Source: Callorhinchus milii
Taxonomy: Eukaryota
Reading direction: 5' to 3'
Length of the DNA: 64,000 nucleotides
Assembly: GCF_018977255.1 (NCBI RefSeq)
Contig: NW_024704742.1
Location: 109,432,001-109,496,000 of the forward strand
The notes beneath the pieces are model-generated. The model had not been told where the DNA came from. It searched no databases and saw only the letters and a list, made by a program, of their open reading frames with translations. The position numbers and the translations under genes were made by a program. This document shows, piece after piece, positions 21,226 through 61,524 of the stretch (the first letter of the stretch is position 1; every line of letters starts with the position of its first letter).

Positions 21226-21547
21226 GGAGTCCTGTAGCTCAGTGGTTAGAGCACTCGCTTTGCAAGTGAGAGACCTGAGTTCAATTCCAGGCAGGGCGAA
21301 ACCTTGGGCAAGTTTCCTTACTCCACACGCCTAATAATAATCCCTCCAAAAAAACAAAACAATAATAAATTGGTCATTTTCAATCCATGACTGTTTGTGG
21401 GACATTGCTGTGCGCAATTGGCTGCCGCATTCGCCCACAAATATACAGTCAATTCACTTTACAGTGTGTCTGTGAAGCGCTTTGGGACGTCCTCCCGACG
21501 TGAAAAGCGCTATATCAAATGCAAGGATTATTATTATTATTATTATT
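21226..21547 (+). mobile_element. Full-length tRNA(Ala)-derived SINE, short subfamily
   Basis: Head ggagtcctgtagctcagtggttagagcactcgctttgcaagtgagag (A box, TGC anticodon arm), B-box-like gagttcaattcc, DeuSINE-type 3' part tgtttgtgggacattgctgtgcgcaattggctgcc, (ATT)n tail; many copies in the window. Confidence 0.92.
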
Positions 21548-36078: not shown

Positions 36079-36400
36079 GTAGTCCTGTAGCTCAGTGGTT
36101 AGAGCACTCGCTTTGCAAGCGAGAGACCTGAGTTCAATTCCAGGCAGGTCAGGGCGAAACCTTGGGCAAGTTTCCTTACTCCACACGCCTAATAATAATC
36201 CCTCCAAAAACCAAAAACAATAATAAATTGGTCATTTTCAATCTACGACTGTTTGTGGGACATTGCTGTGTGCAATTGGCTGCCGCGTTCGCCCACAAAT
36301 ATACAGTCAATTCACTTTACAGTTTGTTCTGTGAAGCGCTTTGGGACGTCCTCCCGACGTGAAAAGCGCGATATCAAATGCAAGGATTATTATTAGTATT
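36079..36400 (+). mobile_element. Full-length tRNA(Ala)-derived SINE, short subfamily
   Basis: Near-identical to 21226-21547; imperfect flanking repeat tacatacatcc/tacatacctcc. Confidence 0.92.
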
Positions 36401-38188: not shown

Positions 38189-38498
38189 GGAGTCCTGTAG
38201 CTCAGTGGATAGAGCACTCGCCTTGCAAGTAAGAGACCTGGGTTCAATTCCCAGCAGGGTGAAACCTTGGGCAAGTTTCCTTACTCCACACGCCTGATAA
38301 TAATCCCTCAAGAAAAAGACAATAATAATTTGGTCACTCAATCCACGGCTGTTTGTGGGACACTGCTGTGCGCAATTGGCTCCTGCATTTCGCCCACAAA
38401 TATACAGTCAATTCACTTTACAGTATATTCTGTAAAGCGCTTTGAGACGTCTAGAAGATGTGAAAAGCGCAATATCAAATGCAATGATTATTAATATT
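38189..38498 (+). mobile_element. Full-length tRNA(Ala)-derived SINE with 9-bp TSD
   Basis: Same family; perfect TSD atctcatat at 38180-38188 and 38499-38507. Confidence 0.93.
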
Positions 38499-46271: not shown

Positions 46272-46478
46272 GGAGTCCTGTAGCTCAGTGGTTAGAGCAC
46301 TCGCCTCGGAAGCGAGACCTGGCTTTGATTCCCATTAGGGCGACTAACAACTGGGTTCCTCCTTACTGCTTGGTAAACAGAGGTGTGTGGAGTAAGGAAA
46401 TTTGCCCAACGTTTCGCCCTGTCGGGAATCGAACCTAGGTCCTCTCGTTTGTGAAGTGCTCTAACCACTAAGCTACAG
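46272..46478. mobile_element. Rearranged SINE: forward head (46272-46343) fused to an inverted 5' half (46341-46478)
   Basis: ctgtagctcagtggttagagcact ... agtgctctaaccactaagctacag; the junction shares cga. Confidence 0.85.
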
Positions 46479-48290: not shown

Positions 48291-50196
48291 TGAATTAAAT
48301 CTATAGCAAGACATTTGTTTATGGTGACAAGTTAAAGGTTATTGAAGCTTCCCTAGTGAAGATGCTGTAACCCAATGCAATACTGTGACTGGCTCTAAGT
48401 GAAACAATGTGAGCATCCCTAAACCAGAAAGAGCCCAATCACAGTAAAACCTAAAGGTTCCACTAAAATACAACCACTGGAGTATTATTCAGCTGACTCC
48501 TCAAATCAATGTCCCCATTATAGTTTTTGTTTTTGCGAACAATTGCACACCATTACATAGAAATGCACAGCTGGGAAACATTTGTCACTCAAATTAAACT
48601 GTAACACTTAAATGACATTTGGATTTTTAAATCTCACTTGAAGAGAATGTACCATTCTGGTACCAATGCAAAAGCGAAATAACATAAATATTTCAATTCA
48701 GAGAATGTTCCAAATGAAAACCTGCCAAATAAAAACCCATGTCCTTTTCTGACCTTCCAAAACCACTTTCTGACTTTTCAATCACATAATACCTCAAATG
48801 TATCAATATTTGCCACGTTTGCTCAACGCGGGATCAATTTAGTTGGGCATTCAGTATTTATCAAATTGAATGTTCCCTGAATGTCCTGGAAGTGGGTCCA
48901 CACATTAAACTTCCAGCTCACAGACTGCAGCTTTCGACTGCTCTGTGTTCAGTAAAAATCCAGAATCCTGTTAACCTGTTAACCAGAATATAGAATAAGA
49001 GATTTTCTTAGTTGCTGGTATAGTATACAATCTTATAAAATGTATTTCTATAATATTATGTTTATGCTAAAATGCAAATAATAAATAAATAATTTTATAA
49101 TAAAATGCAAGTCTCAAAGATTTACAAGTGACAGTATGGAGACCTTTACACTTGCTCAGTGAATGTGTCATTGCTTTCTCCCCCCCATTATGCTTGTATT
49201 TGTGAAATCTGAAGCGTGTAGATTATTGTGATTTAAAATATAGAACAATTACCGAAGTGAGATACTTAATGTGGAGGCTGATTAAGGTGTGAATCCATCT
49301 TCATTTACTTTGGCTTGAATTTCCAGATTGTATGCTAACGTGCAAATAACATCGTTTTTTTCAGCAGGCATGGGATGGATTGGTAATACAAGCATGAACT
49401 CGCCCATCACTGGGAAATGAGCTAATTGGGTGTCTGTGCAGATTCTCTTCTTACAGTGATTAAACAAGTTGTGATTGCTTTCACCATTTTGCGAATTTAC
49501 TTTGTTAACCGATCTGTGATAAACTGCAAGTCTCTTGAAAGTGAGATGCAGTATGTGATCTCATGCATTGAAATAGTTTAAAGAATAGGGAGAGCAGGTT
49601 ACTAAAATATCTTGGATAACATTAACAATTTACTGTATATATTATTCCTTGGTGCTCACTTAACTAACTCTCCTCACCAGCATCAATAAAATTAGCATTA
49701 ATAGCCACGGTATTTTGTAATGAAATGTGCTACTGCACAGCTGTCTTGTCAAAGGACTTGGCACACAATGTATTTAATTGCTTGAAAGGTGCCACAGCAC
49801 CACCAGTACATGAGTGAAACGATTATTTGTTAAAAATGTATGTGAGCTAGTGTTATTTTTAAAATCAGTAGAACATCTGTCCTTTTGCACTTGTTGTTGA
49901 TGATACTGGTGCAGAATAAATGATCTATGTCAGATTGTCCAAAAACATCGACAGAAGCTTGAGCATGTTTTAAGCTAATGCATATTTTGGAGTATTTTTT
50001 AATGTTGTGACCTTTAAATACGCTGGTGCTTAGAGTATTAAAAACTAATCCTAGATTGCGGCTTTCCCTGAAATTACTTTCAATGTTCTGACACATTGGG
50101 GACAAAACCTAACAAATTTTAAAATGCACAGTCACTACACTTTACAGTGAAGCCTGACATGAAAGGTATATCAAACTCAAGCATTATTAAACATAA

Positions 50197-50292
50197 ACAC
50201 AGAAGTCGCTGGGAACAATCAACAGGTCAGGCAGCATCTATGGAGAAAGGAAAGTGATTCAACGTTTCAGGTCCACGACCCTTCATCAGAAC
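50197..50292 (-). mobile_element. Single arm of the same Penelope-derived repeat
   Basis: acagaagtcgctgggaacaatcaacaggtcaggcagcatctatggagaaagg...gtttcaggtccacgacccttcatcagaac aligns with 61133-61226; aacataa repeated at 50190-50196 and 50290-50296. Confidence 0.75.
50258..50292 (-). ncRNA. Minimal type-I hammerhead ribozyme motif with intact catalytic core
   Basis: Minus strand GTT-CTGATGA-A-GGGTC-GTG-GACCT-GAAA-CG-T-T-GAA; stem I is weak. Confidence 0.65.
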
Positions 50293-59000: not shown

Positions 59001-61191
59001 GAATCAGTTTCGAGAAAGAGTTCTCATTCACTATAATTATATATACACTATGTGTAATTCTACCTCTATGCAATTATAAGTAATTGAATGTGCCTTTGTT
59101 TTATGATATTAAGGGCACCAAAACGCAACCTCACGTGAAGGGTGCCATATAAATACAAGTTGTTGTTAATTTGCTTTGCAGTAATACTCTGTCCATGTCT
59201 TCATGTAAGATGAAAAATTGGTACCCTGATTTAAATTGTAGGGCAAAATAAATGGGTTGCTATGTGGGGGTGTAAAGTGCCACATTTTAATGTGATTAGT
59301 ATCACCGGTTTACACAGGTTTACCCTGCGGCAGTATTGACAGTGTCTGGTAAAGGCCTTAAAGGCTGGCAAACGTGGAAAGGAATAAGCCAGGGCTAAGT
59401 TAATTTATAAAATGTAAGTGTTTTTGCCCCAGTTCTTGTACTATATGCTTTGATTATATTTATTTATTTTTACAAGATTCCATTTGGAAAGGTTATTCTA
59501 GACAAAATGATGGCTGTGGCATATTGATACTGTGCAATTGCTTTAGTTGTACCAGGTCAAAGATAACTATATAGTTCGGTAATTGTATGTGAATTTGCTT
59601 TATGATTTGCATTGTTATAATAATATTCTTTGTACTAATAGAAAGTTTTGAACTTGGGTTCAAAGATATTTCCTTCAATCTGATTCTTTACTTAAGCATT
59701 CATTGCAGTTTTGTTGGTGCAAGGGATGAATTGGCGGGGCATGATTTTTCCTTCACTACGAGTTCATCACTTTTTATCACTGTTGCTATAGGGCTTAATC
59801 GTTTGTTACATGGATACTGCCTGTAGCTATATTTAGCATCTTCTGCACAACCAAGCAGGCTGGGCCCTGCAGTTATGTGAACATTTAAATTGCCTTATGT
59901 TTTAATAGCAGATTAATTTGAAGTGTGGCTTGTCTTATCACGTGTTCACCTGATTTACAATTACTCTGGGAGATTAAAGTCACATATAAGCAGAAGATGA
60001 AACAGCCTACAAATGAAAGCAACAGGACCAAACAGGCTTCGATCAGTAAATGAATTAAATTATGCAGATGATTCACATTAAAAGAACTGTTAAAAGCTAT
60101 CACAAGGAATGAACAGTAATTGGGCTCATTTTCTTTAACAATATTTGCATGAAGTTATTTTGTTAAATAACCTGCCTCAGTTTGAAGGAATATAGCTACA
60201 GTGGACAGAAGCCAAAGTGTGCCTGACTGATGTACTTGTTGTAGTGTTAGTTTCAGCAACTGAATTATGATGGCTGATTGACACACAACAGCACATTTTC
60301 TGTCAGCAAGTTCTGTTACAAGTGAAGTTACAAATGGAGACAAATATTTCTTGAATCAGAGTTATTTTCAGTACGCTCATCTTAAATCCAATGACAGATT
60401 TAAAAGACTACAGGAGATATATGCCATATCCCACCTCCTGCTCTGTGATTAAAGTAGCACTAACTTCATAAAAAATATGTTCAATGACCCTTTCCAATTT
60501 GCTTTGGGAGAGACATGAGTCAGAATGGTCATGTTTGTCTCTCATCCCAATATCATGTTCCTCAGTGGGGCTTTTTTGCTGTAATGTAGTGTGTTTGCAA
60601 ATGAAAAAGAAAAAAGCTTTGCCAAACACTTTTTCATGAAGCCTTTAATCATTTATTTTTGTTACGAGCTCAACCAGAGTAAGCTAAATGAGCGACATCC
60701 TCCCTGCTGGACATTAGGGGTCGCTAAGGGTCAACTGTCGTACTGCATGACCTGGTAGTAATCAACCTCCACACACAAAAACACTGAACAAATATTTATA
60801 TTTATCAGTGAATATAGCAATAAACACATTTATTCATTATTAATTAAAAAAAACAGAATTCAGCAGAAGGCTTAATTTTTGACAGATTAAATTCAGTTAT
60901 TGGACACAATAACCACCGCCCTTGGAATAATATCTAGAGCTACGCTTCTGAGCGCTCAATCACATTTCTTTCTTTCCTTTCCTTTTTTTAAAAAAAGTTT
61001 TATTGCATTTGACTTACTTTCGTCTTACTTACTCTTTCATCTTTATTTCCGTCTGGATTTATTATCACTAAAACCTAGCAATCTTTTCACTGTGACTTAG
61101 TGCAGTCAGCATTAGATACATCAATAATAAAAACAGAAGTTGCTGGGATTACACAGCAGGTCAGGCAGCATCTATGGAGAGAGGTAAATGA

Positions 61192-61226
61192 GTCAAAGTT
61201 TCAGGTCGATGACCTTTCGTCAGAAC
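61192..61226 (-). ncRNA. Minimal type-I hammerhead ribozyme motif (core intact, helix III mutated)
   Basis: Minus strand GTT-CTGACGA-A-AGGTC-ATC-GACCT-GAAA-CT-T-T-GAC. Confidence 0.65.
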
Positions 61227-61227
61227 C

Positions 61228-61262
61228 GTTCTGACAAAAGGTCATCGACCTGAAACGTTAAC
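61228..61262 (+). ncRNA. Minimal type-I hammerhead ribozyme motif, G8->A variant (probably inactive)
   Basis: GTT-CTGACAA-A-AGGTC-ATC-GACCT-GAAA-CG-T-T-AAC: stem I GTT/AAC, 5-bp stem II, ACGT palindromic helix III; core reads CUGACAA instead of CUGANGA. Confidence 0.65.
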
Positions 61263-61524
61263 TAACCTGACCCTACTGCATGTTCCCAGCAATTTCTGTT
61301 TTATTTCAGATTTCCAGCATCTGCAGTATTTTGCTTTTTGTTTATTAGATAGATCAGTCTCTTTTAATCTATTTCTCTTGCCTTCTTATTCTCTACTTTC
61401 ATTATCCATCATGTTTTTTTTCACTCTTTCTTTCCTATGGTTGGTATTTATAATTGTTTCTGTTTAATAAATTATTTTTTCCCCACTTCTGCTTCAATTG
61501 ATTGTTATTAGTTATTTGTTAAGA

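Follow-up and report, generated by a model that had tools for sequence, protein, structure and literature searches.

A target-site-flanked hairpin in the Callorhinchus milii genome that very probably consists of two inverted Penelope-like element ends with minimal hammerhead motifs

Architecture of the insert and its hammerhead motifs

The window analysed here is a 64,000-nucleotide stretch of the Callorhinchus milii genome (contig NW_024704742.1, positions 109,432,001 to 109,496,000), and positions 61124-61343 within it form a 220-nt, hairpin-shaped near-palindrome that contains no ORF. The original prediction had described a palindrome centred on 61227 with a hammerhead motif in each arm, the whole being bounded by a 13-bp direct repeat with one mismatch. 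Both descriptions hold: the arms are 92% complementary and the motifs can be read directly from them, and the repeats lie at 61111-61123 and 61344-61356. The features of the locus are as follows.

61111 to 61123: left target-site duplication (TSD), ATTAGATACATCA, a 13-bp direct repeat
61124 to 61226, minus strand: inverted copy of the terminal unit of a Penelope-like element (PLE), without tail (alignment and family comparison)
61191 to 61226, minus strand: minimal hammerhead motif (read from the sequence and compared with the family alignment)
61227: central junction base C, at which the two copies meet head-to-head (palindrome analysis)
61228 to 61305, plus strand: direct copy (arm) of the PLE terminal unit, with a 23-nt internal deletion after 61265
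61228 to 61263, plus strand: minimal type-I hammerhead motif (read from the sequence and compared with the family)
61306 to 61343, plus strand: one-sided 'tail' of about 38 nt, unpaired in the hairpin (family alignment)
61344 to 61356: right TSD, ATTAGATAGATCA, a direct repeat with one mismatch relative to the left

The inner arms (61191-61226 and 61228-61263) are 36 nt long, 92% complementary and separated by a 1-nt spacer, and are followed by outer arms of 31 nt (61130-61160 and 61272-61302) with 81% complementarity. Aligned as two copies of one unit, the arms share 92% identity over 76 ungapped columns, the right arm carrying the 23-nt deletion. The left (minus-strand) arm runs 5' to 3' from the hammerhead start at 61226 to a proximal end near 61126; it shares 91% identity with the unit of a real genomic copy, L053, and corresponds by BLAST to reference positions 160-258. 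A 19-mer from the arm occurs three times in the window (0.02 expected). When the insert is folded as RNA, the whole arms of about 100 nt are predicted to pair (MFE -96.4 kcal/mol, z -11.3), rather than the hairpin of roughly 35 bp in which the opposite arm had been proposed to lock the ribozyme. Logan contigs over 61050-61480 are short and multi-copy, and none of those listed spans the whole stretch; loose contig ends whose flanks differ occur at 61228 and 61334-61345, which is consistent with the ends of other family members.

The plus-strand motif comprises GTT, the core CTGACAA (61231-61237), a bulged A, stem II with its loop (AGGTC/ATC/GACCT, 61239-61251, in which 61239-61243 pairs with 61247-61251), GAAA (61252-61255) and CGTT followed by AAC, with the cut predicted between 61259 and 61260; the palindrome ACGU occupies 61255-61258. 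The minus strand has an intact CUGACGA core (the reverse complement of 61217-61223), which is followed by stem II (AGGUC/GACCU), GAAA and CTTT-GAC, with the cut predicted between 61195 and 61194. The CUGANGA/GAAA core is complete in this arm and has lost G8 in the other, where it reads CUGACAA (G8 to A relative to the family majority). The minus arm has in turn lost the ACGU palindrome, which reads ACUU (G to U, again relative to the family majority). The earlier claim of one damaging change per copy is thereby borne out, and both ribozyme motifs at the locus appear to be damaged, each by a single disabling change.

At the level of the family the motif is better preserved. The CUGANGA and GAAA boxes occur in type-I order in the family majority and in 1467 genomic copies, one unpaired A separates CUGACGA from AGGUC in the family as in both window arms, and the 4-nt palindrome ACGU is shared by the family and the plus arm of the window. 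The G10.1-C11.1 closing pair of stem II is absent from the subfamily of the window, which has A-U in its place, and is G-C in a sister subfamily; a hand tally over the first 100 rows from the relaxed-core search gave 52 G-C, 24 A-U, 18 G.U and 6 non-pairs. The closing pair is compensated between subfamilies, and its identity varies. Rfam cmscan (E<=10) returned no hammerhead match in the window copy, in four intact copies or in one intact tandem PLE; this silence is not counted against the ribozyme because the Rfam models are limited for motifs that lack helix III. Judged on sequence features, the hammerhead assignment fits the published minimal hammerhead ribozymes (min-HHRs) at the family level.

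A dispersed family linked to a Penelope-like element

The arm is one member of a very numerous family that has thousands of copies in this genome of about 1 Gb. A first-look genome search gave 3633 candidates and 83 scored matches (68-100% identity) that are biased towards complete hairpins. An exact 32-mer core matched the genome 47 times (0 in the control), and a relaxed ribozyme core the 1467 times mentioned above (0 in a reversed control). Twenty-two complete hairpin copies were aligned, and all show the hairpin with its one-sided tail set in unique flanking sequence. Abutting repeats of at least 8 bp flank 16 of these 22, as against 13 of 462 mismatched control pairs, and the TSDs measure 8-16 bp. 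Copies were classified by alignment to L053, of which reference positions 1-46 are flank. The classification covers 39 of the 47 exact-core copies (two others lie in locus L033 and the remaining six fall outside the sample) and comprises 15 solo copies without tail, 5 solo copies with tail, 6 copies extended upstream, which are longer pieces truncated at the 5' end, and 13 fold-backs; as the sample requires an exact core in one arm, the share of fold-backs is that of the sample and not of the genome. What looked like a second discrete 5' end, at reference 47-52, was discarded as an artefact of the L053 flank. Head-to-tail tandem arrays were seen neither in the 22 hairpin loci nor in the 1.2-kb stretches around the 39 classified loci, and the single same-strand pair of cores, 4.7 kb apart in L033, has identical match coordinates. 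L033 was also considered as a full-length element and rejected: it contains no ORF of at least 120 aa, and its duplicated match coordinates indicate a duplicated block.

The link to a PLE comes from 18 loci that were picked solely for a PLE-like ORF. The terminal unit is present in 14 of them, and in 12 of the 18 it lies downstream on the strand of the ORF. An intact 825-aa PLE ORF matches RVT_1 (9.2e-12), and its RT region (aa 198-618) is matched in 14 of the 18 loci; five decayed ORF pieces gave sub-threshold Pfam matches only. In 10 of the 18 loci the unit is preceded on its own strand, at a distance of 70-750 nt, by a motif of the type CGLLYIGETK..LGDRFAEH, the GIY-YIG-type matches being individually weak (E 0.003-0.45). 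In L031 a related ORF, itself without a Pfam match, lies ahead of a Pfam GIY-YIG match that exceeds the cut-off (35.4 bits). On this evidence the arm is the 3' terminal unit of a decayed PLE with RT-like and GIY-YIG-type regions. The original prediction had raised the possibility of an autonomous PLE sharing this end: such loci do exist in decayed form, with RT and GIY-YIG-type regions, and an intact autonomous copy with the exact terminal unit was not found, all 18 ORF loci being decayed. Other candidates for the parent were set aside. L031 and L032, reached through the Pfam GIY-YIG match, have a PLE-like ORF, but the unit does not occur within 1.5 kb of it. The tandem arrays L083-L085, the only intact PLE seen, contain a different hammerhead and have no DNA similarity to the unit.

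A short ORF-less insert with long inverted arms and direct-repeat flanks would also suit a MITE whose terminal inverted repeats resemble a hammerhead by chance. This reading is already contradicted, and we assign it a negligible probability: the TSDs vary in length across the 8-16 bp range, the ends are asymmetric with a tail on one side, single arms make up half of the classified copies, and the arm forms the 3' terminus of elements that encode RT.

Fold-back geometry and the origin of the insert

The 13 fold-backs in the classified sample, which was not chosen by shape, share a common geometry. Exactly one arm carries the tail in all 13, as in the 22 aligned complete hairpins. Tail-less outer ends fall at reference 251-265 in 11 of 12 cases, with the twelfth (the selected arm of L068) at 229, and tailed outer ends fall mostly at 292-298. 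The second arm is cut off at a differing inner position in 12 of the 13, with inner ends at reference 166, 180, 184, 190, 190, 197, 220, 223, 225, 232, 238, 256 and 259; in L036 and L051 it consists of the tail alone. Fold-backs therefore have both outer ends fixed, one proximal and the other about 38 nt farther, and an inner junction that is specific to each locus.

This geometry bears on whether the hairpin is itself a mobile unit. The original prediction had left two readings standing, either a Penelope insertion of which only the ends with their ribozymes are left or a retrozyme-like family that has one ribozyme per strand. Under the latter, an independent non-autonomous fold-back family (a 'mini-PLE') would have its entire hairpin transcribed and retroposed as a unit. 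In favour of this, common outer ends are shared by at least 22 complete hairpins, whose centres lie within a few bases of one another, and the side of the tail relative to the arms is identical in all of them. Against this, the second-arm inner ends of the fold-backs spread over reference 166-259, among the 39 classified copies 20 are solo stubs beginning where the hairpins have their centre, and the bases at the centre of complete hairpins vary (C, T or A, with longer and shorter forms as well). In majority sequence each arm is the exact reverse complement of the other and no change is peculiar to one arm; head-to-tail tandems are, as noted above, absent from the copies examined. A sense transcript of the insert would moreover hold one sense ribozyme copy, sequestered in a predicted stem of about 100 bp; the minimal type of hammerhead is thought to require a dimer. 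We consider an independent family quite improbable, although some complete hairpins may stem from secondary copying. The Penelope-ends reading is supported: decayed PLE ORFs have the unit at their 3' end, and the combination of an inverted arm, a tail on one side and a TSD agrees with the published architecture of PLE insertions, discussed below.

We conclude that 61124-61343 is, with high probability, a TSD-flanked fold-back of two inverted PLE-end copies of about 100 nt with minimal hammerheads, likely produced in a single insertion primed on two strands. That the fold-back was made at insertion, rather than copied as a retrozyme-like family, is most likely because an inverted pLTR with a one-sided tail and a TSD is the published PLE signature. 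The events that we infer (two-strand priming, transcription start and cleavage) may be pictured as follows. The PLE endonuclease would make a staggered cut, of 13 bp at this locus. The PLE RNA would offer two internal start sites, and from one or other of these RT would begin a cDNA on each strand. Both cDNAs would here reach the RNA 5' end, which would coincide with the first letters of the hammerhead, and would then be joined head-to-head. The hammerhead would serve self-processing of the RNA of the parent element and not this locus, where the insert is most likely inert debris. In the sole PLE tested in vitro, hammerhead self-processing is protein-assisted.

A palindromic junction could also arise by snap-back self-priming of one cDNA in place of priming on both target strands, and the part of the discussion in PMC3846280 that deals with such palindromes reads them as self-priming. 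Synthesis would then run from the centre outward, which predicts that shortened arms lose their outer ends, whereas the 13 fold-backs keep their outer ends in place and differ at their inner ends. Nor does snap-back sit well with a second arm made of the tail alone, or with the extension of both strands by a PLE protein in vitro (PMC11167929), and we regard it as very unlikely.

Returning to two-strand priming, the hairpin centre would recur because the RNA 5' end is fixed, and this is where the 20 solo stubs start. Upstream-extended copies have an Inr-like CCAGTTC that is preceded, at a distance of about 25 nt, by a TATA-like ATAA. A 3' splice site was considered as an alternative, given the pyrimidine tract and CAG before the hammerhead; a transcription start is preferred because the solo stubs share no upstream exon sequence. 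A more specific proposal is that the stubs are run-off cDNAs that record integration, with the RNA 5' end falling exactly on the first base of hammerhead helix I and two-strand priming from strictly distinct starts, one strand using the proximal site and the other the distal (tail) site in all 13 fold-backs. We put this forward tentatively, as possible rather than probable. If true, it would favour two-strand priming over self-priming, and the ribozyme fold would mark the 5' end of the transposition template.

Significance and comparison with known systems

The insert itself is of little importance: it is a dead, mutated retrotransposon end-piece of a structure type already published, a decayed and ordinary example of a described PLE pattern. 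Its use is partly as an annotation safeguard, since it warns against labelling such hairpins as novel ribozyme systems, MITEs or precursors of microRNAs. Taken together, the many copies, in which outer ends are fixed, junctions vary and the tail is one-sided, make the family a sizeable natural data set that bears on two-strand RT priming by PLEs, a step examined in vitro to date for a single lizard element.

Non-LTR retrozymes (bioRxiv 10.64898/2026.07.22.740005) resemble the window family in being short and ORF-less and in having type-I hammerheads and kinship with PLE pLTRs. Retrozymes are head-to-tail tandems with ribozymes on the same strand, from which circular RNA release is possible, whereas the window family consists of units that are dispersed, single or inverted, and have one sense ribozyme on each strand.

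Min-HHRs sit in PLE terminal repeats (Cervera and De la Pena 2014, PMC4209133) and are characterised by an unpaired nucleotide 9/10.1, a highly conserved G10.1-C11.1 pair and a palindromic 15.2-16.2 / loop 3 (PMC4209133). The window motifs share with them the type-I order of CUGANGA, stem II and GAAA, the unpaired base A9/10.1, a short helix I of 3-4 bp, and the lack of a real helix III, with a 4-nt ACGU suited to pairing in a dimer. In both cases there are thousands of heterogeneous copies, mostly single, with some pairs on opposite strands. The window subfamily differs in its A-U closing pair in place of G-C, in a stem II of 5 bp compared with the 7-8 bp reported in Schistosoma, and in the disabling change within each window motif. 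The min-HHR alignments for fishes (PMC4209133 supplement) may already include this motif family.

The closest biochemical counterpart is PAc, a Poseidon PLE from Anolis carolinensis, in which two RT start sites bracket a tail and both DNA strands are extended in vitro (PMC11167929). The PAc tail lies about 90-130 nt downstream of the hammerhead, and the target that is cut is AT-rich (Frangieh et al. 2024, PMC11167929). The window family matches PAc in the presumed pair of start sites bracketing a tail downstream of the hammerhead, in the AT-rich target and in the presumed extension of both strands; PAc represents biochemistry on the element of another species, whereas the window family is known from genomic products alone.

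In the relevant passages of PMC3846280 and PMC8557442, an EN+ PLE insertion comprises a pLTR, an adjoining inverted and 5'-truncated copy, a one-sided tail of 30-40 bp and a TSD. As far as those passages go, the window insert follows the same plan: an inverted copy abuts a direct copy, the tail of about 38 nt is one-sided, the TSD is short and variable, and the hammerhead lies inside the repeated terminal unit. It departs from the pattern described there in having neither an ORF nor a second direct pLTR, and in that both copies are about 100 nt long and end at the first letters of the hammerhead. The window insert is, in these terms, the smallest form of the EN+ PLE insertion pattern.

Structure and abundance of the fold-back element

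The element is a near-palindrome of 220 bp spanning window 61124-61343, in which two inverted terminal units (arms) of a Penelope-like element (PLE) are followed by a one-sided tail:

61191-61226 / 61228-61263: inner arms, 36 nt each and 92% complementary, with the single base 61227 between them
61130-61160 / 61272-61302: outer arms, in which pairing is carried on at 81%
61306-61343: unpartnered right end, ~38 nt
61111-61123 / 61344-61356: 13-bp direct repeat with one mismatch, abutting both ends of the element

An alignment of the two arms gives 92% identity across 76 ungapped columns, with a 23-nt deletion in the right arm. The RNA is predicted to form a single long hairpin (-96.4 kcal/mol, z -11.3), and none of 200 shuffles folds as well.

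A search of the ~991-Mb C. milii genome with the 220-bp sequence, which favoured complete hairpins, returned 3633 first-look candidates; the 83 matches that were scored range from 68 to 100% identity. There are 47 genomic occurrences of the intact 32-nt core and 1467 of a relaxed core, and none of either in the reversed control. The 220-bp element thus belongs to a very abundant family. Alignment of 22 complete hairpins shows that the arms and the one-sided tail are conserved and that the flanks are unrelated. Sixteen of these 22 copies are bounded by direct repeats 8-16 bp long, compared with 13 of 462 mismatched control pairs, and the 13-bp repeat noted in the original prediction is therefore a genuine target-site duplication (TSD) of variable-length type. 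Such variability indicates insertion by way of a staggered cut with reverse transcription, not by a cut-and-paste transposon.

The window also contains a second family member and several tRNA-like sequences, the latter all within 25 kb and representing either a gene cluster or SINE heads:

50193-50290 (- strand): solo tail-less stub (a short terminal PLE copy with a single arm) starting GTT-CTGATGA; stem II is closed by G.U (sister-subfamily type), and identity to the reference copy is 87%
21229-21298, 36082-36151, 38191-38262 and 46274-46343 (+ strand): three tRNA-Ala(TGC) matches and a fourth, weaker tRNA-like match

Elsewhere in the genome, tRNA-like sequence (Rfam tRNA) lies beside stub copies at two loci, L039 (734-805, 60.1 bits, at the tail end of the stub) and L053 (963-1025, 35.5 bits). 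Stubs apparently sit in or beside tRNA-derived SINEs.

Association with decayed Penelope-like elements

Eighteen chromosomal loci were selected solely by their match to a PLE-like ORF. The family unit is present in 14 of these 9.9-kb stretches, downstream of the ORF and on the same strand in 12. At a density of no more than a few thousand copies per gigabase, chance would account for a few per cent. This supports the proposal that the element derives from a Penelope insertion. The same genome has tandem arrays with an intact 825-aa ORF that matches Pfam RVT_1 at 9.2e-12, and 14 of the 18 loci match the reverse transcriptase (RT) region of this ORF (aa 198-618). Ten of the loci have a GIY-YIG-type motif on the strand of the unit, 70-750 nt upstream of it, with individually weak E-values (0.003-0.45). 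In L031, a related ORF is followed by a GIY-YIG match that exceeds Pfam's curated cut-off. All 18 ORF copies are decayed, and no intact parent carrying the unit was found among them.

The intact tandem PLE is rejected as the parent, since its hammerhead is a different one and its DNA does not resemble that of the unit. It forms head-to-tail arrays on small unplaced contigs (L083, G000:C1063:2000-9500; L084, C888:13000-22000; L085, C235:9000-16000), with a period of ~3.0 kb in L083 and a spacing of ~3.0-5.2 kb in the other two. The copies are apparently intact, with stop-free ORFs of up to 819-825 aa and a hammerhead-like motif (CUGAGGA ... GAAACGUC) where the open frame of each unit starts; this element is possibly still active. 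Another short repeat interrupts decayed PLE ORFs (L090, 5259-5512 and 4968-5339; L102, 5802-6152, 6414-6644 and 7176-7430). The repeat gives recurring translations (such as ...SALTTELQDS... and a second, 31-letter string), which suggests SINE-like insertions nested within old PLEs.

Junction variation and the origin of the fold-back

Of the 47 exact-core copies, 39 were retrieved singly and positioned against an actual genomic copy, L053, which served as the ruler; of the other eight, two are in L033 and six were left out.

Classes among the 39 copies, a set conditioned on one exact core
Tail-less solo stubs: 15/39
Tailed solo stubs: 5/39
Copies reaching further upstream: 6/39
Fold-backs (two head-to-head arms): 13/39

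The outward ends of tail-less fold-back arms fall at ruler 251-265 in 11 of 12 cases (the twelfth, the selected arm of L068, ends at 229), and those of tailed arms mostly at 292-298. The inner ends of the non-selected arms are, by contrast, spread over 166, 180, 184, 190, 190, 197, 220, 223, 225, 232, 238, 256 and 259, and in two of the 13 fold-backs the second arm is tail alone. The central bases also differ among the 22 complete hairpins. The junction therefore differs between loci, which, on the criterion set in the original prediction, speaks against the suggested independently amplifying, non-autonomous fold-back family and favours inversion during insertion. The window copy is the case with both arms complete. 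Some complete fold-backs may have been copied secondarily. At L033 (G000:C4:54253500-54262500) a ~4.7-kb block with a head-to-head stub pair occurs twice in tandem, with identical match coordinates at a 4675-bp offset, and is apparently a local segmental duplication, not a full-length element.

All 13 fold-backs carry the tail on exactly one arm; independent use of the tail, at the frequency seen among solo stubs (5/20), would produce this in ~38%. The 20 solo stubs begin at (A)GUU before CUGACGA, and the centre of the window element coincides with this 5' end; contigs from independent runs (short and multi-copy) also stop at 61228, with unlike flanks. From the solo-stub ends we infer that the PLE RNA begins at the first base of the hammerhead. 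Copies extending upstream suggest the same start, as they have an Inr-like CCAGTTC preceded at a distance of ~25 nt by a TATA-like ATAA, a stretch which may instead be a 3' splice site.

According to published work, a PLE insertion has a direct terminal repeat next to which lies an inverted, 5'-truncated copy; the 30-40-bp tail is confined to one end, and the TSD is short (PMC3846280; PMC8557442). With a lizard PLE in vitro, the tail is bracketed by two internal RT start sites, the cut target is AT-rich, extension occurs on both DNA strands, and the ribozyme cleaves only with protein present (PMC11167929). On this basis we propose a two-strand origin, in which the PLE endonuclease would have made a cut staggered by 13 bp at an AT-rich site and each cut strand would have primed cDNA on PLE RNA, one from the proximal site and the other from the distal. 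Both cDNAs would then have run off the RNA 5' end and been joined head to head. Snap-back synthesis from the centre could also yield a fold-back but fits less well, as fixed outer and variable inner ends are better matched by two cDNAs begun from outside.

The hammerhead motif and known systems

The predicted outward motif order is present in both arms:

61231-61237 (+ strand): CUGACAA, preceded by GUU and followed by an extra A, AGGUC-AUC-GACCU, GAAA, ACGU (overlapping the final A of GAAA), U and AAC
Between 61259 and 61260 (+ strand): cleavage site predicted from the motif reading
Copy on the - strand: CUGACGA intact, ACGU changed to ACUU

Set against the family majority in the 22-copy alignment, the two lesions originally proposed (G8A on the + arm, ACUU on the - arm) are real, and both motifs of this element are damaged. 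The majority keeps CUGANGA and GAAA, with one unpaired base following A9, a 5-bp stem II, the palindrome ACGU replacing helix III and a helix I of 3-4 bp. Rfam hammerhead models match neither the window copy nor intact copies, which carries little weight for a motif without helix III. The ribozyme would serve the life cycle of the parent PLE RNA; a transcript of this locus would hold one sense copy only, while motifs of this type probably require a dimer, and the opposite arm would sequester it.

Stem II length excepted, these features appear among the traits of PLE minimal hammerheads (PMC4209133), where the listed stem II closing pair is G-C, whereas the window subfamily has A-U. A sister subfamily with G-C is present in the same genome; a hand tally of the first 100 relaxed-core rows, all from the first 52 Mb of contig 1, gave 52 G-C, 24 A-U, 18 G.U and 6 non-pairs. 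The closing pair reads as a single compensated change separating the lineages, which argues modestly for a role of pairing in the source elements. This particular stub family was not found named in the Penelope and hammerhead literature, and the supplements of PMC4209133 may show it; its fold-back insertion structure is of a kind already known for PLEs.
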